Source: Escherichia coli | Lineage (GTDB): Bacteria > Pseudomonadota > Gammaproteobacteria > Enterobacterales > Enterobacteriaceae | Assembly: GCF_022846255.1 (NCBI RefSeq) | Contig: NZ_AP025682.1 | Reading direction: 5' to 3' (one strand) | Length of the DNA stretch: 64,000 nucleotides | Shown here: positions 2,835 to 64,000 of the stretch, in pieces | Layout: each line of letters starts with the position of its first letter | Numbering within the stretch: position 1 is the stretch's first letter | The notes under the pieces: model-generated | Seen by the model: the letters and a program-made list of their open reading frames with translations, nothing else | Database searches by the model: none | What the model was told of the DNA's origin: nothing | Position numbers and translations under genes: made by a program

Positions 2835-3497
2835 TTACCCCCGATTTCCATATTTCTTTTTCCATAACACGACCAGAGAACCTGCCAGGCCAAACACCAG
2901 CAGCACCACCGGGAGCAGCATCAGGCATGACATCAGCTGGTCCTCGTACTTTAAAAATACCGGCGTTTTGCCGAGCATGTAACCCAGAGTTGTCAGGATC
3001 AACACCCACAGCAGACCACTCATCCAGTTGAAGAACTGAAAGCGCGCGTTATTCAGCCCTGATAACCCGGCAATCGTCGGCAGCAGTGTTCTGACAAACG
3101 CAATAAAGCGACCAATTAACAGCGCCGATAAACCGTGTTTATGAAAAAGATGGTGTGCGCGTTGATGATAATGCGCGGGTAAATGAGATAGCCAGTTTTG
3201 TACTGTGCGGGTATTGCCCAGCCATCGCCCCTGAATATAGCTGACCCAGCAACCGAGGCTGGCGGCAACGGTCAGCAGCAGAATCGTTTGCGGATAGCCC
3301 ATCGCGCCTTTCGCAATCAATACGCCGACCAACACCAGTAAACTGTCGCCCGGTAAAAAGGCCGCCGGAAGCAAGCCGTTTTCAAGGAACAAAATTACAA
3401 ACAAGACAAAATACAACATGCCAATCATCGACGGATTGGCCAGGGTTTCAAAATCCTGCGCCCACAGGGCTTGCAGCAATTGGGTCAAAAGTTCCAT
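2835..3497 (-). CDS. yqjA: DedA-family inner membrane protein YqjA
   Basis: 220-aa [27 protein letters not shown]...; multi-pass membrane protein, DedA/SNARE-associated family. Confidence 0.92.
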
Positions 3498-3841
3498 TCA
3501 TTATTCCTGGTGAATCGGTTAACGCCACGCTGGTTTTAAAAGATGCACTACCGCAATGTTATTGCTGTTTTGGTATGTTTTGCGGGTTTGATACATCAAC
3601 ACAGCCTGAACTATTCCCTGTTAAATCGTGAGATAAGAAAGCATTCAAAAGCATAAATTCAAATTGAATCTAATTGTAACAAAGGTCAACGTTGTTCGTT
3701 ATCAAAATTACATGTCCGTAGAGTCTGATTTTGCTGATTGCAGGGGAGGGTGGCGAGAGGATTTACACAGGCTGACACTTTATACTTTTCGCTTACCGAC
3801 GAAGCAAACAGGCGCATTGCAGCGCCTGTCGGATGGAAATT

Positions 3842-4618
3842 TCATTTGCTGCCGCTGGTGGCCGTATCGAGATGCACTACCGGGTTTTCTGCGAACAGAT
3901 AGCGGTCGGCATTGAACTCGAAATCGTCGCTGGTTTCGTTAAATAACATGATTTTGGTGTTTTCCAGATGCTGCCACATTGCCAGCTTAGCAGCATGAGG
4001 ATCTTTGCGAATTAACGCCTTGAGGATCTGATCGTGGTCATCGCACCAGTTATCGACAGTACGGGCATCAATGTGTTCGTGTAGTTTTTTCCAGTACGGG
4101 TTATGGCTACGTTGGGTCCACATTTTTTCCACGATAGCCGCCAGGGCGGAGTTCTGCGTCGCCAGAGCTACCTGAATGTGGAACTGCAAATCCCACTCGG
4201 AATCACGGAAGCATTGTTCGCCGCGCGCCTGCTCCTGGATGGCCATCAATTTCATGATGTCCTGTTTCGTTACCTGAGTTGCCGCGAACTCGGCAATATT
4301 ACTTTCGATGAGCTGGCGAGCCTGGAGCAACTCAAACGGACCGTAATTGGCGAATTCCATATTATTGTCCGCCGCCTGCTGATGACGCGGCTGGTTGGAA
4401 ACCACGTGAATACCTGAACCTTTACGCACCTCCACATAGCCTTCAACTTCCAGCATGATGATGGCTTCACGAACCACGGTGCGGCTGACGTTTTTTTCAT
4501 CGGCAATAAAGCGCTCAGCAGGCAGTTTATCACCCACCAGATAGACGCCCTGTTCGATGCGCTCTTTCAGATCAGCGGCAAGTTGTTGATACAAACGGCG
4601 TGGTTCAGTGATTTCCAT
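3842..4618 (-). CDS. exuR: GntR/FadR-family repressor of hexuronate genes, ExuR
   Basis: ORF 3842..4633; recognised start [26 protein letters not shown] at ATG 4618; N-terminal GntR HTH, FadR-like C-terminal domain. Confidence 0.93.
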
Positions 4619-4747
4619 ATGCGCTCCAGGCATGATACGGCAGACTATATTTGTTATACCACTTTTGCGAGTTTAGCTCTACTCACAGTGATGAAAAAGC
4701 CGCCTGAGAAGGCGGCTTTGAAGGGAAACTAAAACTTACACGAAGCC

Positions 4748-6046
4748 TTAATGTTGCGGTGCGGGATCGTTATGTGATTCCTGCGCCACCTCAATCGCCG
4801 GTTTGTTCTGCAACACGGTCCAGATAACCAGCGCACCTAACAGGTCGAACACTGCCAGAACTGCGAACAGCGGGCTGAAGCCGATGGTGTCAGCCAGTGC
4901 ACCGACTACCAGTGCAAACAGCGTACTTGCCAGCCATGCGGACATCCCGGTTAAACCGTTCGCCGTCGCCACTTCGTTACGACCGAACACGTCAGAAGAG
5001 AGCGTAATCAGTGCGCCAGACAGTGCCTGGTGAGCAAAACCACCGATACACAGCAGCATAATCGCGACATACGGGTTGGTGAACAGACCGATCATACCCG
5101 GGCCAATCATCAGCACCGCACCCAGCGTTACGACCATCTTACGGGAAACGATCAGGTTCACACCAAACCAACGCTGGAACAGCGGCGGCAGGTAACCACC
5201 GAGGATACAACCGAGGTCAGCAAACAGCATCGGCATCCAGGCAAACATCGCGATCTCTTTCAGGTTAAAGCCGTAAACTTTAAACATGAACAGCGGGATC
5301 CACGCGTTAAAAGTACCCCAGGCCGGTTCTGCCAGGAAACGCGGCAGCGCGATACCCCAGAACTGACGGTTACGCAGGATCTGACCAACGGACATTTTCT
5401 TCGCCGTGCTCACCTGGTGCTGGGCTTCCTGACCATTAATAATGTAGTCGCGTTCTTCATCGGTCAGATGCTTCTGGTCGCGCGGATGTTTATAGAAAAT
5501 CAGCCATGCCATCGCCCAGATAAAGCTCAACGCACCGGAGATGATAAATGCCATCTGCCAGCTGTGCATTACGATTGCCCATACCACCAGCGGCGGCGCA
5601 ATCATCGCACCAATCGAAGAACCTACGTTAAAGTAGCCTACTGCGATGGAACGCTCTTTCGCCGGGAACCATTCGGAGCTGGCTTTCAGACCCGCCGGAA
5701 TCATCGCGGCTTCCGCGGCACCGACCGCACCACGAGCAACAGCCAGGCCACCCCAGCTACCAGCCAGCGCGGTTGCACCACAGAACACGGCCCACAGTAC
5801 AGCAAACATTGCATAACCGATTTTCGTACCCAGCACATCCAGTACATAACCCGCTACCGGTTGCATGACCGTATAAGCAGCAGAATACGCTGCGATGATA
5901 TAGGAATACTGTTGGGTGGAGATGTTTAACTCTTCCATCAGAGTTGGCGCAGCTGCCGCCACAGTGTTACGCGTCAGGTAACCAAGCACGGTGCCGAGCG
6001 TCACCAGTGCGATCATATACCAACGTAACCCTTTAATTTTACGCAT
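4748..6046 (-). CDS. exuT: Hexuronate MFS transporter ExuT
   Basis: ORF 4748..6166; start at ATG 6046 (MRKIKGLRWYMIALVTLGTVLGY...) with GAGG RBS; 432 aa, 12-TM MFS profile. Confidence 0.93.
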   Translation of the reverse strand: MRKIKGLRWYMIALVTLGTVLGYLTRNTVAAAAPTLMEELNISTQQYSYIIAAYSAAYTVMQPVAGYVLDVLGTKIGYAMFAVLWAVFCGATALAGSWGGLAVARGAVGAAEAAMIPAGLKASSEWFPAKERSIAVGYFNVGSSIGAMIAPPLVVWAIVMHSWQMAFIISGALSFIWAMAWLIFYKHPRDQKHLTDEERDYIINGQEAQHQVSTAKKMSVGQILRNRQFWGIALPRFLAEPAWGTFNAWIPLFMFKVYGFNLKEIAMFAWMPMLFADLGCILGGYLPPLFQRWFGVNLIVSRKMVVTLGAVLMIGPGMIGLFTNPYVAIMLLCIGGFAHQALSGALITLSSDVFGRNEVATANGLTGMSAWLASTLFALVVGALADTIGFSPLFAVLAVFDLLGALVIWTVLQNKPAIEVAQESHNDPAPQH

Positions 6047-6277
6047 GTAAAACCTCATCGTTTTGTTATATCCGCAGGAAGCGCGGCCATCATCCCGCCA
6101 GAGGCTGAAGATGTTAGTTACGACCGGGTAACCGAAAAAAAACCGGCACGCCCCGAACGTTGCCATGAAAGTTTCGTGCTAATTCGGCTTCCGTACCGGT
6201 TAACCCGATTCATCTAACAAATGAATGAATCGGCAATTTGCATTCCGTCGACTTATGATTTGCGACGGCAGAAAGAT

Positions 6278-6294
6278 AACTTGTCATACAACTT
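6278..6294. promoter_or_regulatory. Imperfect palindrome AACTTGTCATACAACTT in exuT-uxaC divergent control region; candidate ExuR/UxuR-type operator
   Basis: Seen in sequence; half-sites match 6 of 7. Position between divergent hexuronate genes fits known ExuR control; operator assignment is inference. Confidence 0.35.
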
Positions 6295-6426
6295 TAAAAG
6301 GTGAGAGCCATCACAAATGTGCGAATATTTGTAGGGACATTACCTGACGACGGCGAGGCCAGTACTGGCGCGGCCTGCAGCGAGATTTACCACTTTGAGA
6401 GTAATTTTTTTAACTACGTTTATTGA

Positions 6427-7941
<1,515 letters not shown>

Positions 7942-55223: not shown

Positions 55224-55252
55224 TTGACGCTGTTGTTTTTTCAACCTAAAGT
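55224..55252 (+). promoter_or_regulatory. Near-consensus sigma70 promoter (TTGACG-17-TAAAGT) driving the Sib antisense sRNA
   Basis: -35 TTGACG at 55224..55229, 17-nt spacer, -10 TAAAGT at 55247..55252; predicted TSS about 55259, 40 nt downstream of the ibs stop on the opposite strand. Confidence 0.5.
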
Positions 55253-55258
55253 AAAGGA

Positions 55259-55400
55259 ACAAGGGTAAGGGAGGATTTCTCCCCCCTCTGATGAGTTGTT
55301 AGTAAGTCGGGAAACTTAACAGTAACAACACAACCAGTATGATGACGAACTTCATCATAACCCTTTCCTTCTATAAGGCCCCTTCCTCGGGAGGGGCTTT
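55259..55400 (+). ncRNA. Sib-family antisense sRNA (type I antitoxin; SibD/SibE-like), ends approximate
   Basis: Transcript from the promoter above would cover the whole ibs ORF on the opposite strand and end at a GC-rich hairpin (CCCCTTCC-TC-GGGAGGGG, about 55380..55397) followed by CTTTCCCGTTT; about 140 nt, the size I recall for Sib RNAs. Confidence 0.55.
55299..55358 (-). CDS. Ibs-family type I toxin, 19-aa hydrophobic peptide MMKFVIILVVLLLLSFPTY
   Basis: ATGATGAAGTTCGTCATCATACTGGTTGTGTTGTTACTGTTAAGTTTCCCGACTTACTAA on the reverse strand with RBS GGAAAGGG 5 nt upstream; matches the Ibs consensus (MMK.VIIL..LLL.SF..Y). Below the ORF-track size cut-off. Confidence 0.8.
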   Translation of the reverse strand: MMKFVIILVVLLLLSFPTY

Positions 55401-55597: not shown

Positions 55598-57259
55598 TTA
55601 CTCTGTTTTTTCTTCGACGGGAGTTGTTGAGGTTAAGGGGGAAGTCAATGCCGCCAGTGAGCCGCCTGAAACGCCAATTTCATTGAGCAAGGAGTCAATC
55701 AGCGGTGCCTGTGTGCGGTAAGAAAGGGCGGCAGACAATGCCTGTTCTGCCAGGTTTCCGCCACTAACGCTGCCTGATGCCGCATCCCCCGCAGCACCAC
55801 CTCGGTTTAATCCATCGACCTGAATAATCTTGATGCCGTCGATAGACTTCATCGGCTCAACGGATTTCTCTATTACTGCAGGTAACGACTGTAATAGCGC
55901 CAGTTTGAATTTAAGGCTGGTTTGTTCATCAGAAAGTACGTTGATAGCGTCGTTCAGCGCACGTTGCGCTTCTGCTTCCGCCAGACCCTTTTTACGCGTA
56001 GCTTCGGCTAACTCAACGATTGCCGCCGCCTGCATCTCTGCGGCTTCTTTCTCTGCTTTCGCCCGCACGGTCAATTCAACCGCTTTGGTTTCTGCATCCT
56101 GCGCGGCAGCGATTAGGGCAACTTGTTTAGCACGATCGGCTTCTGCGGTCTGGCGAGTTGTTTCTACGTTTTGCTGGGCGCTTACCGCTTCTGCAAGTGC
56201 AAGGTTGGCACGCGCTTCCGCTTGTGACTGCTGTTCCGATTTGGCGGCAATAGCGATCGATTTCGTCTGGTTGGCGATTTCGGTGACCTGCTGCTGTTCG
56301 ATCTCTTTAATGCGAACTTCACGTTCAGCTTCAACTTTTCTGGAACGGACGGCCTGTTCGCGGTCGATTTCCGTTTCCTGAATCTGTCGTTCAGCCAGAA
56401 TTCGCGTCTGCTCTGCTTCCCGACGACGCTCGGCCTCAAAAGCTGCAATTTTCGCATTCTGCTCAGCGGTACGGGTTTTAACCTGCTGCTCCTGTTCAAG
56501 CGTCATAAACGCTTCTTGTTGTTCAATCTCCAGCTTCCGCGAAAGCGCATCACGGTTTTTCTCACGCACCGCAACTTCTACATCCTGTTCAACTTCGTTA
56601 CGTTCGCGACGACGGCGCTCCGTCTCCTGCGTCAGCTTGGTCAAACCTTCGGCGTCAAAGGCGTTGTTAGGATTGAAATGTTCTTTCGACGTCTGGTTAA
56701 AGTTGGTAAGTGAAACGCTTTCCAGTTCCAGGCCGTTTTTTGACAGATCCTCAGCTACGGTATTTTGTACCCCCTGCACGAAGTTCTCGCGGGTATCCTG
56801 TAACTCATGCATGGTCATTTGTGCCGCTGTTGCACGGAGGGCATCGACAAATTTATCTTCAACCAACATACGTAAGTCTTCAGGCGACAGGGTGCGTTGC
56901 CCCAGCGTCTGGGCGGCGGTGGCAATACCTTCCACTGACGGTTTTACCCGTACAAAGAAAGCGACAACGACATCGACGCGCATACGATCTTTCGTAATCA
57001 GGCTATCAATGGTTGAGCGGCTGACTTCCAGCTTCAGAGTATTCATATTGATGGGGATTATTTCATGAAAGATCGGCATCACGATTGCGCCACCGCTCAT
57101 TACCACTTTTTGCCCACCTAAACCAGTACGAACAAAAGCTTGCTCTGCCGAAGCGCGACGATAGAGCCTGGCGAAAATAATTCCAATAATAAACAGAATG
57201 CATACGGCAATAATCGCGGTAAACATCCAGGAGGGCACAGAATTAACAATATCATCCAT
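55598..57259 (-). CDS. yqiK: Flotillin-like SPFH/band-7 membrane protein YqiK
   Basis: 553-aa ORF MDDIVNSVPSWMFTAIIAVCILFIIGIIFARLYRRASAEQAFVRTGLGGQKVV...; N-terminal TM, SPFH domain, long Ala/Glu-rich coiled coil. Confidence 0.9.
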   Translation of the reverse strand: MDDIVNSVPSWMFTAIIAVCILFIIGIIFARLYRRASAEQAFVRTGLGGQKVVMSGGAIVMPIFHEIIPINMNTLKLEVSRSTIDSLITKDRMRVDVVVAFFVRVKPSVEGIATAAQTLGQRTLSPEDLRMLVEDKFVDALRATAAQMTMHELQDTRENFVQGVQNTVAEDLSKNGLELESVSLTNFNQTSKEHFNPNNAFDAEGLTKLTQETERRRRERNEVEQDVEVAVREKNRDALSRKLEIEQQEAFMTLEQEQQVKTRTAEQNAKIAAFEAERRREAEQTRILAERQIQETEIDREQAVRSRKVEAEREVRIKEIEQQQVTEIANQTKSIAIAAKSEQQSQAEARANLALAEAVSAQQNVETTRQTAEADRAKQVALIAAAQDAETKAVELTVRAKAEKEAAEMQAAAIVELAEATRKKGLAEAEAQRALNDAINVLSDEQTSLKFKLALLQSLPAVIEKSVEPMKSIDGIKIIQVDGLNRGGAAGDAASGSVSGGNLAEQALSAALSYRTQAPLIDSLLNEIGVSGGSLAALTSPLTSTTPVEEKTE

Positions 57260-57285
57260 TATTAAATTTCCTTTTGATTAATAAA

Positions 57286-57915
57286 TTACAATATTTGGGG
57301 CCAGGGATTGTTTTCCGCCAAATATCGCGTTGCAGAAAGTCGGCAAATAATTAACACTTTGTCTCCTTTAGTGAAAATTTTTCCTTCTTCAGGCTCCAGT
57401 AGTAAATAATGTATTTGGCCAAATTGATCGGTGAGTTTTCCTTCGCAGGGATTACCTGAAGTGGCTTGATGACCGGTAATTAACGCCATGCTACCAATAT
57501 ATTCTTCTTCTGTAATAGCTGAGCTGTGATCGCGTGGAATCCAGGGCGCAACTATTTTACCGGTATAATGCACCGCAATAATCGTAAACAGTAAACTGAC
57601 AGGAACCACAAACAGGTTCGAGAGTGGTGATTGCCAGACCATGATGCAGGTATGCTGCAACAGGATGCCAATAAGACCAAAAAAAACAGCCAGTAAGCAG
57701 AGAACGACGAGAGCTGGCAATCTTCCGATATTGAGATAATGAAGTGCCTGGCTAATATGACCTGTGGTTATGGAATCATAATGGTCAAGATGTGCATCAA
57801 GAGCACCGGAGAGCATGTGACCGCAGATAAGCGCAAAAATTTCTAAAAGGCCGATCAACAGTACAAAGGAAATAGCGAAAAGATAAGGGGTGTTATAGTC
57901 GGCGAATAAAATCAT
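57286..57915 (-). CDS. yqiJ: NfeD-like inner membrane protein YqiJ (partner of YqiK)
   Basis: 209-aa [37 protein letters not shown]...; multi-TM N-terminus plus C-terminal OB-fold-like region; 26 nt upstream of yqiK. Confidence 0.85.
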
Positions 57916-58183
57916 ATGTCACTCCGATGTCCATTTAGTGACGCAATATTTACTTTAGGGTAGTTTCCTTGCTTACATTTATCTTTGTTAATAATAACAC
58001 ATGTTAGAGAAGTTCTGGAAGAGAAAGTCTTTTAATATGGTTTTTTATTTTTCACTAAAAAGTGTGATCGGGGACAATATATTTACGCACGTTATGTTTA
58101 AAGGCACTACACTGATTGGGGAATACTGAAATCAGAAAAAGCATATGGCCTTAAAAGGTATGCGATAACCGGAGGATGTGCTT

Positions 58184-58384
58184 ATGGATCATAGTCTTAA
58201 TTCTTTAAATAATTTCGATTTCCTGGCGCGTAGTTTTGCCAGAATGCACGCAGAAGGTCGCCCGGTCGATATTCTGGCCGTTACTGGTAACATGGATGAA
58301 GAACATAGAACCTGGTTTTGCGCACGTTATGCCTGGTATTGCCAACAGATGATGCAAACCAGAGAACTTGAATTAGAACACTGA
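58184..58384 (+). CDS. glgS: Surface composition regulator GlgS
   Basis: Track ORF starts at GTG 58178; real start ATG 58184 ([45 protein letters not shown]...), 66 aa, GGAGGA RBS. Confidence 0.9.
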
Positions 58385-58388
58385 TATT

Positions 58389-58410
58389 ACGGGCCGTCTG
58401 GCCCGTTTTT
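58389..58410 (+). terminator. Rho-independent terminator of glgS
   Basis: ACGGGCCGTCTGGCCCGT hairpin followed by TTTTT, 5 nt after the glgS stop and 8 nt before the convergent ubiK stop. Confidence 0.6.
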
Positions 58411-58418
58411 GTGATGCT

Positions 58419-58718
58419 TTATTCTGCTTTATCAATAGGCGGGATAGCCGGAGGAGATTGAAGATCTGCTACCGAATTATTGCGCGCTTCCAGTTCACTG
58501 ATGCGCTGCTCCAGTAACGCCAGTTTTTCACGAGTCCGTAACAGGACTTGCGTCTGAACGTCGAATTCTTCGCGGCTTACCAGATCGAGACGCGTCAGCT
58601 GCGCTTGTAGGGTTTGGCGGATTTTTTTCTCCACATCTTCCCCGAACTCCCTGATTCCTTTAGGCATTGATTCGTGAACCTGGCGAGCGATTTGCTCAAT
58701 TTTTTTCGGGTCAATCAT
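58419..58718 (-). CDS. ubiK: Ubiquinone biosynthesis accessory factor UbiK (YqiC, BMFP family)
   Basis: ORF 58419..58778; recognised start [41 protein letters not shown] at ATG 58718; coiled-coil protein of about 99 aa. Confidence 0.88.
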
Positions 58719-58839
58719 TGTAGTTTCCCTGTACTGATAGGTGTTGAGTGCCATTGTAGTGCGATAAGGGTAAGTCATAAACCAGAATTATGTGAAGCTA
58801 TGCGTTGCTGCCGCTAATCATTAGCGTTATAGTGAATCC

Positions 58840-59085
58840 GCTTATTCTCAGGGCGGGGCGAAATTCCCCACCGGCGGTAAATCAACTCAGTTGAAAGCCC
58901 GCGAGCGCTTTGGGTATGAACTCAAAGGACAGCAGATCCGGTGTAATTCCGGGGCCGACGGTTAGAGTCCGGATGGGAGAGAGTAACGATTCTGTCGGGC
59001 ATGGACCCGCTCACGTTATTTTGGCTATATGCCGCCACTCCTAAGACTGCCCTGATTCTGGTAACCATAATTTTAGTGAGGTTTT
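58840..59085 (+). promoter_or_regulatory. FMN riboswitch (RFN element) in ribB leader
   Basis: Conserved RFN blocks visible: GGGCGGGGCGAAATTCCCCACCGGCGGTAAA ... CCGACGGTTAGAGTCCGGATGGGAGAGAGTAACG, followed by an expression platform reaching the ribB SD (GAGG at about 59078). Confidence 0.8.
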
Positions 59086-59091
59086 TTTACC

Positions 59092-59745
59092 ATGAATCAG
59101 ACGCTACTTTCCTCTTTTGGTACGCCTTTCGAACGTGTTGAAAATGCACTGGCTGCGCTGCGTGAAGGACGCGGTGTAATGGTGCTTGATGATGAAGACC
59201 GTGAAAACGAAGGCGATATGATCTTCCCGGCAGAAACCATGACCGTTGAGCAGATGGCGCTGACCATTCGCCACGGTAGCGGTATTGTTTGCCTGTGCAT
59301 TACTGAAGATCGCCGTAAACAACTCGACCTGCCAATGATGGTAGAAAATAACACCAGCGCCTATGGCACCGGTTTTACCGTGACCATTGAAGCGGCTGAA
59401 GGTGTGACTACCGGTGTTTCTGCCGCTGACCGTATTACGACCGTTCGCGCAGCGATTGCCGATGACGCAAAACCTTCTGATCTGAATCGCCCGGGCCACG
59501 TTTTCCCACTTCGCGCGCAGGCAGGTGGAGTACTGACGCGTGGCGGTCATACTGAAGCAACTATTGATCTAATGACGCTGGCAGGCTTTAAACCGGCTGG
59601 TGTGCTGTGTGAGCTGACTAATGACGATGGCACGATGGCGCGTGCACCAGAGTGCATTGAGTTTGCCAATAAACACAATATGGCGCTCGTGACTATTGAA
59701 GACCTGGTGGCATACCGTCAGGCACATGAGCGTAAAGCCAGCTGA
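59092..59745 (+). CDS. ribB: 3,4-dihydroxy-2-butanone-4-phosphate synthase RibB
   Basis: 217-aa [54 protein letters not shown]... Confidence 0.95.
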
Positions 59746-59778
59746 AAACCGCTGCTTAATTTACTGCCTTAATCAAGA

Positions 59779-59812
59779 AACCGAAGTTGTAGCAGGCTTC
59801 GGTTTTTATTTT
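59779..59812 (+). terminator. Rho-independent terminator of ribB
   Basis: AAACCGAAG-TTGTAGCAGG-CTTCGGTTTTTATTTT: stem plus U-tract 33 nt after ribB stop. Confidence 0.6.
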
Positions 59813-60006
59813 TCCCTGCTATGCAAGATGTTAATTCCGCTTCTCTTTCTATGAGAAAATTTCATTAATATCAGGCATTCTTTTTCATTATGATCAAAAT
59901 CATATAATTGTTCCGTTATTATGCGACCATATGAATATATCCGAAAAAGGATATGTGAAATTTATGCGCTAAATGTTTAGTATTGTTAAATATTAAGGGT
60001 AAAAGG

Positions 60007-61984: not shown

Positions 61985-62656
61985 TTAGCCTCTGATGATT
62001 TTAAGTGCCCATGCGCCACTCATAATGACCAGCAGCACCAGACACATACCAAAAGCCAGCATACAAGCCTGAGCCATATTCATAAAATGCCATGGTGGTA
62101 GCAGATACCAGCCTTCAGATTGCTGATACATTTCCACAAACCACTGTTGCGTGCTGCTCAGTGTGACGCCATCAGGAACGATTGGTGCGTCATAGCCACA
62201 ATCCCCGGTAGGCTTGAACCAATTTGGTGCCCACTGTGCCAGCGGCAGGTTAAAGGGAAAAGTTGGATCGGTAGAGCAACCCTGTACGCCAAACAGTGAA
62301 TCGGGATCCGGATTATGTACTGCATGGTGGATATCGTTCAGTTTGAGCGAAAACTTCAGTCCCAAAATGCTGCCGTAAAATGCCATCACGCAGCCAATTA
62401 GCTTTAGGATGATGTTCTTTGGGTTGATCGCTGCAACCAATCCTCCAATAACCATCACAAACATGGCGTAGCGAATGTATACACATTGCTCACAGGGTGC
62501 CATGTAGAGATAGATCTGGAAGAAAGAGTGCGCCAGGATAATTAACGCGCCCATCGCAACGGCCATTAACAACCACAACAAGCGTTGCTCCTGCCATCTG
62601 ACCAGTGTGTCAACTGGTGATGTGCGAAGATCTTTCCACATTCCCTTAATACCCAT
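61985..62656 (-). CDS. dsbI: DsbB-family membrane thiol oxidase DsbI
   Basis: 223-aa ORF with 4 TM segments and a periplasmic Cys pair in PCEQCVY, DsbB-like topology; last gene of the assT-dsbL-dsbI operon. Not in K-12 at this position by recall. Confidence 0.88.
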
Positions 62657-62670
62657 AGCCTGTTTCCCTG

Positions 62671-63339
62671 TTATTTGCTTGCTAACTCACGGATAAGGTC
62701 TGCCATCGCGTCGATGGATTTGATGCTCTTGGTGTAGATCAAGTACTTACCATTAACGACATAGGCTGGAACCCCCTGGATTTTGGCGACATCATAAGAG
62801 GCTTTCCATTTTTCCAGTGTTTCTTGAACCGCTGGTTCTTTCAGTGCCGCTTCAAAATCCGCCTGACTCATACCTGCGGCATCCAGACCGGTTTTGATAA
62901 AAGCAGCCGGATCTTTACCGTCAGACCAGCGTTCTTTTTTGTCGTGATAAGCCACGTAGTAGGCAAACTTGGCTTTCTTAAACTGAGAGTTAGCATCAAA
63001 TAAGGAAATGCCTGCTGCTTTATCTTTATTGATCAAGACCGCAAAGACTTCGCTTGCTTGTTTGCCGTATTCACCTTTGGTTTCCAGATGGAACGGCGTG
63101 AAAGCAACGATATCTTTCACTTTTTCCGATACCGGACCGGTAACCGCTTTGTCGTACTTGTAACAGAACGGGCAGGCGTAGCTGAATACCTTAATCAGCG
63201 TTTTGTCTGCATTCGGAATAGGTTTTTCCAGAACCATGTAATCCGTGCCTTCGGTAAATGCAGAAGCGGTAAATGAAACAGCCAAAGCTGCGGTAAGCAG
63301 TATGCTTTTAAATAGTGATGAGATCCCTAATTTCGACAT
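62671..63339 (-). CDS. dsbL: Periplasmic thioredoxin-fold oxidoreductase DsbL (DsbA paralogue)
   Basis: 222-aa ORF with signal peptide [27 protein letters not shown] and CPFC active-site motif ([11 protein letters not shown]); 14 nt upstream of dsbI. Confidence 0.88.
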
Positions 63340-63356
63340 TTTTATTCCCTTCTTAA

Positions 63357-64000
63357 TTATTTGAACATCTGTTGTGGACGGACTAACAATGCACGATAGT
63401 GAGTCTGATTGGGTTTATCTGACAGCACGTCGATTTCCACTTTCACTTCTTTGGTTTTGTAATCGATTTCGTTCAACTTACCGACGGTTGGCTGCCCGAC
63501 ATCGAACAAATGAATAGAACCACCGAAGCCAAACATGGTGTTACGGTCGGCTTGATATTCAATGATGGAGGTGATTGGGCTATAGAAATCGTAGCCACGT
63601 TCTTTACCGTATTCCCACACTTGCTGAACGGTGCCTTTCTTCTCATCAATCTTATATTCCACAAAGCGGGAATATTTCATGGTTGGTAAGGCAGGTTGTT
63701 CCAGATGACGACCATCGCCATTATCAAAAATGGTGAGCGTTCCTTTGCTGGAAATCCAGGCGGTATGCTGGGTGTAGGTAAAGTCGAAGTCTGAGTTTTC
63801 GCACAGGCCATTTTCGTTACAGGTAATTGGCTTACCGTTAGCATCAACCGGTTTCAGCAGCTTGCTGGCCAGAGGTTTTTCCCAACCTTTAGAGGGCGCA
63901 AGGATCCATTTCACTTGCTTATCACGACCAATCTTCACAACACCCTGGTGGCGAGAGGAGAGGATGATAGAGTCATCTTTTGCGTCATAGGCGATAGAGT
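63357..64000 (-). CDS. assT: Arylsulfate sulfotransferase AssT, C-terminal part only; gene continues beyond window end
   Basis: Reverse-strand frame is open from the window end (...YDAKDDSIILSSRHQGVVKIGRDKQVKWILAPSKGWEKPL...) to the stop at 63357; the 193-aa track entry is only the part after an internal GTG. Beta-propeller sulfotransferase by recalled similarity. Confidence 0.88.
   Translation of the reverse strand, partial: SIAYDAKDDSIILSSRHQGVVKIGRDKQVKWILAPSKGWEKPLASKLLKPVDANGKPITCNENGLCENSDFDFTYTQHTAWISSKGTLTIFDNGDGRHLEQPALPTMKYSRFVEYKIDEKKGTVQQVWEYGKERGYDFYSPITSIIEYQADRNTMFGFGGSIHLFDVGQPTVGKLNEIDYKTKEVKVEIDVLSDKPNQTHYRALLVRPQQMFK

Follow-up and report, generated by a model that had tools for sequence, protein, structure and literature searches.

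A probable ancestral glgS–ubiK junction in Escherichia coli at the site of the Yqi-like fimbrial genes of K-12

The window analysed here is a stretch of 64,000 nucleotides from Escherichia coli (NCBI RefSeq assembly GCF_022846255.1, contig NZ_AP025682.1). Its glgS–ubiK junction very probably represents the ancestral enterobacterial arrangement, into which nothing was ever inserted, and the fimbrial block that occupies the same site in K-12 would be a later import by homologous recombination. The adjacency of the two genes, the conservation of this adjacency in outgroups, the breakpoints relative to K-12, the step in divergence at these breakpoints and the frequencies of the two states in the population were all observed directly.

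The glgS and ubiK genes of the window

An initial annotation of this DNA had described glgS and ubiK as convergent genes with only 34 bp between their stop codons, and our analysis confirmed this arrangement (58385–58418). The outer ends given at that time, 58178 and 58780, turned out to be those of the longest open reading frames (GTG at 58178 and ATG at 58778); the annotated starts are at 58184 and 58718. Both genes are annotated by RefSeq in a 99.8%-identical genome. The first encodes a member of the GlgS family, with a match to PF08971 over residues 1–66 (E = 1.1e-45, 153.9 bits against a cut-off of 32.2), and the second encodes UbiK (YqiC), with a match to the BMFP domain PF04380 over residues 1–78 (96.2 bits against a cut-off of 37.2). 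The left-hand neighbour, yqiJ, is collinear with K-12 and with the outgroups. On the other side, ubiK and ribB, the latter with its FMN riboswitch, are divergently oriented, an arrangement found likewise in all of the at least 80 related loci. This region of the window was matched in 5,425 of 5,426 complete E. coli genomes. The genes and signals are as follows.

57286–57915, minus strand: yqiJ, an open reading frame so annotated in near-identical genomes, with tblastn matches in outgroups
58184–58384, plus strand: glgS, 66 aa, Pfam PF08971 and RefSeq annotation of the 99.8%-identical genome (L002)
58385–58418: intergenic spacer, 34 bp from stop to stop, read from the sequence
58389–58411, plus strand: intrinsic-terminator-like hairpin and T run, with stem 58389–58395/58400–58406 and loop GTCT
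58419–58718, minus strand: ubiK (yqiC), 99 aa, Pfam BMFP PF04380 and RefSeq annotation in L002
58840–58988, plus strand: FMN riboswitch upstream of ribB, Rfam RF00050, 120.9 bits
59092–59745, plus strand: ribB, from the open reading frame and annotation; its 3′ end borders a second fimbrial site, which is empty too

Comparison of the junction with K-12

The initial annotation had placed fimbrial genes and a copy of IS2 between glgS and ubiK in K-12. The annotation of MG1655 bears this out, the order there being glgS, yqiI, yqiH, the usher gene (yqiG), IS2, ygiL and ubiK. We carried out the K-12 alignment that had been proposed as a check and found that glgS and ubiK are not adjacent in that strain. 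Instead, 6,639 bp of K-12 DNA (L001 2362–9000) take the place of 74 bp of the window (58414–58487). In these blastn comparisons, positions 57000–58413 of the window align to K-12 until 13 bp before the yqiI stop codon, and positions 58488–60000 align from a point within ubiK, which places the right breakpoint inside that gene. The 74 bp take in 5 bp at the end of the spacer, the stop codon of ubiK and its codons 78–99, which specify the C-terminal tail. The C-termini of the two UbiK proteins differ, the window protein having 99 aa and the K-12 protein 96 aa, and the Pfam domain, ending at residue 78, does not include the variable tail. On either side of the 74 bp is a short tract of raised divergence, as listed below.

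58342–58413: left diverged tract, containing the hairpin and the final ~14 codons of glgS; 13 of 72 positions mismatch K-12 (18%)
58414–58487: segment of 74 bp without an alignable K-12 counterpart, defined by the blastn breakpoints and the comparison of UbiK tails
58488–58592: right diverged tract, containing ubiK codons 43–77; 15 of 105 positions mismatch K-12 (14%)

The junction had been called seamless, a description that does not hold in comparison with K-12, as the polymorphic segment (58342–58592) runs into both genes. As read from these alignments, the difference between the window and K-12 is an allelic replacement; it does not amount to the mere gain or loss of DNA between two intact genes. 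Searches of the 64-kb window with tblastn and blastn detected no remnant of the Yqi-like block, of the EA/I block described below or of IS2. The usher, chaperone, major subunit and adhesin genes that make up a Yqi-like locus between glgS and ubiK are absent from the window.

One way to arrive at such a junction would be a clean deletion, in which a block of ~6.6 kb was precisely excised from a K-12-like arrangement. The absence of the block and the tidiness of the junction are all that speak for it, and we consider it extremely unlikely. The explanation fails because the removal of K-12-like DNA cannot produce positions 58414–58487 of the window, 74 bp that encode the conserved tail and are absent from K-12. 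Conversely, the K-12 UbiK tail and the flanking tracts that are 14–18% diverged are absent from the window, and no class of genomes with the K-12-type tail and a direct glgS junction appeared in our counts. The window was therefore rejected as a deletion derivative of the K-12 arrangement; it has the ancestral tail and ancestral-type tracts.

The borders of the K-12 block were also inspected for target-site duplications and direct repeats, as the initial annotation had advised, and none were present. Neither direct nor inverted repeats flank the block, and the only repeats found were the inverted repeats of IS2 itself. Judged as a mobile genomic island, the K-12 block lacks an integrase, a tRNA target and bracketing repeats. 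Its annotation consists of fimbrial genes and IS2 only, and the block is AT-rich (37–41% GC versus 52% for the window).

Conservation of the junction in outgroups

Species-representative genomes were scanned with UbiK, which yielded at least 80 loci; this sample did not extend to the E. coli type strain or to E. fergusonii, E. marmotae and E. ruysiae. Among the loci listed, direct convergence of glgS and ubiK with a spacer of 28–73 bp was found in Escherichia, Citrobacter, Salmonella, Raoultella, Klebsiella and Pseudocitrobacter. Spacer lengths in these outgroups, and in the E. coli strain APEC O18, were as follows.

E. albertii: 28 bp
L003, a divergent E. coli-labelled genome (92% identical): 34 bp
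APEC O18: 34 bp
Citrobacter, at least 8 genomes: 32–33 bp
Raoultella: 31 bp
K. spallanzanii: 58 bp
S. enterica subsp. arizonae and Pseudocitrobacter: 72–73 bp

The UbiK tail gave the same picture as the spacer. The tail motif of the window protein, PAIPP[VI]D, is present in more than 25 other species, from genera that include Citrobacter, Salmonella, Enterobacter, Kosakonia, Phytobacter, Superficieibacter and Leclercia, among others. In contrast, the K-12 UbiK tail showed no resemblance to the tail of any of the at least 76 other species with which it was compared. Because the outgroups share the junction, the hairpin and the tail motif, we assign the ancestral ubiK allele to the window. Thus, of the two origins between which the initial annotation had left the choice open, an ancestral empty site agrees with the outgroup adjacency, the hairpin and the UbiK tail, whereas a clean deletion does not.

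Divergence at the breakpoints and import of the K-12 block

Mismatches between the window and K-12 are concentrated in the two tracts that adjoin the 74 bp. Inside the tracts 28 of 177 positions differ, compared with 37 of 2,750 outside (Fisher p = 3e-18). Divergence from K-12 in the surrounding intervals was as follows.

57000–57999: 19/1000 (1.9%)
58000–58341: 1/342 (0.3%)
58593–58890: 0/298 (0%)
58891–60000: 17/1110 (1.5%)

Nearly all of the changes between the window and K-12 in ubiK codons 43–77 are synonymous, with a dS of ~0.96; the tracts that underlie these divergence estimates are short (72 and 105 bp). For the same codons, dS is 0.41 between the window and L003 and 0.54 between the window and E. 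albertii. Codons 1–42 are identical in the window and K-12 (dS 0). As the species tree predicts, the window allele in the right tract is nearest to those of L003 and E. albertii, whereas the K-12 allele is about equally far from the window, L003 and E. albertii. Strain CEC15 has a yqi-like allele only ~95% identical to that of K-12, yet its breakpoints and diverged flanks match those of K-12. The two yqi-like alleles, which are mutually only 94.5–95% identical, thus have common breakpoints.

As to the direction and mechanism of the arrival of the K-12 block, we infer import from an unsampled donor. A diverged glgS′–yqi-like–′ubiK haplotype would have been imported once, by homologous recombination, from a distant donor that is not among the genomes sampled, with crossovers inside the 3′ end of glgS (~58342) and inside ubiK (~58592, codon 42/43). 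Such an import would also have replaced the last third of ubiK, giving K-12 a non-ancestral UbiK C-terminus, and the K-12-type block (ygiL–usher–yqiH–yqiI) would have been added in E. coli and Shigella only. K-12 ubiK is thus likely to be a mosaic, in which codons 43–96, the Yqi-like block and the last ~14 glgS codons were imported together from a donor about as distant as another genus (dS ~1). We did not find the donor among the YqiI relatives: those with at least 83% identity belonged exclusively to E. coli and Shigella, and identity fell to 36% in the relatives that came after them, from Enterobacter, Trabulsiella and Salmonella. In the 3′ part of K-12 ubiK (L001 8941–9133), codons 78–96 form an unrelated-looking tail that occurs in no other species sampled.

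Homologous recombination within conserved genes on either side can bring accessory blocks into genomes, as at other variable loci of E. coli. Like blocks gained in this way, the K-12 block has no integrase, tRNA or terminal repeats, and flank divergence jumps at its borders. Unlike them, one of its proposed crossovers is in a small housekeeping-type gene, ubiK, and would have changed the C-terminus of the protein. If acquired as proposed, the K-12 block would be a clean example of an island gained via flanking homology.

Two other explanations were weighed. In the first, an ancient balanced polymorphism, both haplotypes would have been kept in E. coli since before the split from E. albertii, and an outside donor would not be required. 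This explanation accommodates the absence of a donor species for the block from our searches, the fact that both haplotypes are common (38% and 62%), and the finding of two alleles, ~5% apart, of the yqi-like block itself. However, E. albertii and the divergent genome L003 have the empty type only, divergence changes in one sharp step at the edges of the tracts, without gradual decay, and the tract dS of ~1 exceeds the distance between E. coli and E. albertii. We therefore judge a long-maintained polymorphism to be improbable.

The second explanation is a secondary restoration, in which a once-occupied lineage lost the block by recombination with empty-site DNA, so that the ancestral allele and UbiK tail were swapped in. 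The sharp mosaic boundaries indicate that the locus recombines. Moreover, the window and K-12, which carries the block, differ by 1 mismatch in 640 bp just outside the tracts versus ~1.7% further out. This near-identity could reflect a fairly recent exchange here in either lineage, possibly that of the window. It is also explicable by strong conservation, however, as the window has ubiK codons 1–42 and a leader identical to those of K-12, CEC15 and O18. The window tract differs from the B2-type empty allele of APEC O18 at 7 of ~251 positions (~2.8%), which argues against a recent copy. In addition, the complete genomes nearest to the window over 24–25 kb are empty-site strains close to B2 (for example F11 and 536), and the doubly empty state, in which the ribB-proximal site is vacant as well, is found in one fifth of all complete genomes. 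On balance, a loss and restoration of this kind seems unlikely, and we favour descent of the window junction from the ancestral empty site with import of the block on the K-12 side.

A conserved hairpin between the converging stop codons

The 34-bp gap was said in the initial annotation to be occupied by a single terminator hairpin, and we did find one GC-rich hairpin with a T run there. The terminator scan placed the hairpin ACGGGCC-GTCT-GGCCCGT at 58389–58406, followed by TTTTTGTG, with 7 pairs of which 6 are G–C. Its folding energy is −16.5 kcal/mol (z-score −3.1 versus shuffled sequences). On the plus strand, in the direction of glgS, it has both the GC-rich stem-loop and the T run of an intrinsic (Rho-independent) terminator. 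As for a bidirectional terminator, the scan gave no site on the minus strand; read in the direction of ubiK, the hairpin is followed by AATATCAG. From its sequence the hairpin is predicted to terminate glgS transcription, and it is possible that the same hairpin serves ubiK as well.

Convergent gene pairs may share one intrinsic terminator hairpin. The glgS–ubiK pair resembles such pairs in having a single GC-rich hairpin between the converging stop codons that is conserved across genera, and differs from them in that the hairpin has a good T run in the glgS direction only. Among the loci listed, the stem ACGGGCC…GGCCCGT is kept in Escherichia, Citrobacter, Salmonella, Raoultella and K. spallanzanii, and the loop varies. 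The hairpin stays beside glgS in K-12 and likewise in the other block carriers, in which ygiL is co-directional with ubiK and downstream of it. A simple scan, which provides weak evidence on this point, detected no terminator between ubiK and ygiL of K-12.

Frequency of the two junctions in E. coli

We determined the distribution of the two junctions in a population set of 5,426 complete E. coli genomes. The contiguous ancestral glgS–ubiK junction is present in 2,066 of them (38%), and the K-12-type ygiL–ubiK junction with its tail in 3,362 (62%). At least 80% of the yqiI-to-usher block was found in 3,268 of the 5,426 genomes (about 60%). Since 2,066 and 3,362 together account for approximately all 5,426 genomes, the type of UbiK tail and the block are completely linked. 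The EA/I operon was found in 993/5,426 genomes. A further 1,080/5,426 (~20%) are “double-empty”, being collinear with the window from yqiJ to zupT and having neither operon. The difference between 2,066 and 1,080 is 986, which is near 993; EA/I is thus almost confined to genomes with an empty glgS–ubiK site.

If the mosaic reading is true, 62% of E. coli would have a UbiK C-terminus of foreign origin, in perfect linkage with fimbrial type. If, in turn, the tail matters for UbiK function, results obtained with UbiK/YqiC of K-12 and of Salmonella may not be interchangeable.

Measured against K-12, the yqiI-to-usher block falls into two identity classes, one at ≥99% and the other at ~94.5%. The two classes (L001 2362–6671 versus CEC15, L083 4001–8287) are far more diverged than the flanking core genes. 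Between them, YqiH and YqiI are ~93% identical and YgiL is 99.5% identical.

Over stretches of 24–25 kb from window positions 15001–64000, none of the 5,426 complete genomes is more than 98.9% identical to the window. The source lineage of the window appears to be poorly represented among complete genomes.

The EA/I site and published fimbrial systems

The second fimbrial site, at the 3′ end of ribB, is also empty in the window.

59744–59888: empty EA/I site, 145 bp between ribB and yqiD, defined by blastn breakpoints and the annotation of APEC O18 (L085)

In APEC O18, a 5,482-bp block with the EA/I chaperone-usher operon replaces these 145 bp and starts at the ribB stop codon. The window does not have the four genes between yqiD and ribB that constitute the EA/I (Yqi) locus. 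The K-12 block has the same four-gene layout as EA/I and is paralogous to it, with 37–59% protein identity. The two differ in their insertion points, that of EA/I being the 3′ end of ribB, ~1 kb from the glgS–ubiK site.

The EA/I (ExPEC adhesin I, ‘yqi’) cluster of APEC and UPEC was described as absent from K-12 and intestinal pathotypes (Antão et al. 2009, PMC2771359). A later study reported that Yqi and Yqi-like fimbriae are related, that they are encoded at different loci and exclude each other, and that their distribution accords with phylogroup, B2 on the one hand and A, B1, D and E on the other (Wurpel et al. 2013, PMC3559732). The K-12 operon, a clade-specific accessory locus, would correspond to the “Yqi-like” fimbriae of that study, a match based on the phylogroups named there. 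The presence/absence polymorphism and the mutual exclusivity are thus already known. The searched portions of PMC3559732 contain no mention of glgS, ribB, the junction sequences, the ancestral state or an altered 3′ end of ubiK, and the rest of the literature searched yielded nothing relevant on the junction or on a mosaic ubiK.

The main value of the present analysis is therefore one of annotation, that of a strain without either of the Yqi-family operons that flank the ribB–ubiK pair. To this we make the small addition of a proposed direction and mechanism, by which the arrival of the K-12 block would also have rewritten the 3′ third of ubiK. The new detail is that the 3′ third of K-12 ubiK, together with the UbiK tail, would be a recombinant import linked to the block.

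Same-family four-gene operons, convergent on ribB, are found at the EA/I position in Citrobacter, Enterobacter, Lelliottia, Pseudocitrobacter and Klebsiella (L011, L016, L020, L023, L024, L026, L029–L031, L055, L074 and L076, at about 3000–7900). Their protein identity to EA/I is mostly 42–49%, and up to 71% for the usher of K. spallanzanii. Enterobacter sp. MGH 24 (L029) has two such operons in tandem downstream of ribB. Either rapid evolution after vertical inheritance or successive replacements at a hot spot may account for these operons.

Other features of the window

Between hldE and yqiK, the window has one copy of the SIB RNA/ibs type I toxin–antitoxin system (55224–55373), and CEC15 has two copies at the same place (L083 436–585 and 812–961).

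At the right-hand end of the window, the minus strand after ygiD (61985–64000) contains dsbI (61985–62656), a DsbA/DsbL-like gene (62671–63339) and the end of an aryl-sulfate sulfotransferase gene. In K-12, ygiC–ygiB–tolC come directly after ygiD; positions 61985–64000 of the window are therefore another accessory block that is absent from K-12.
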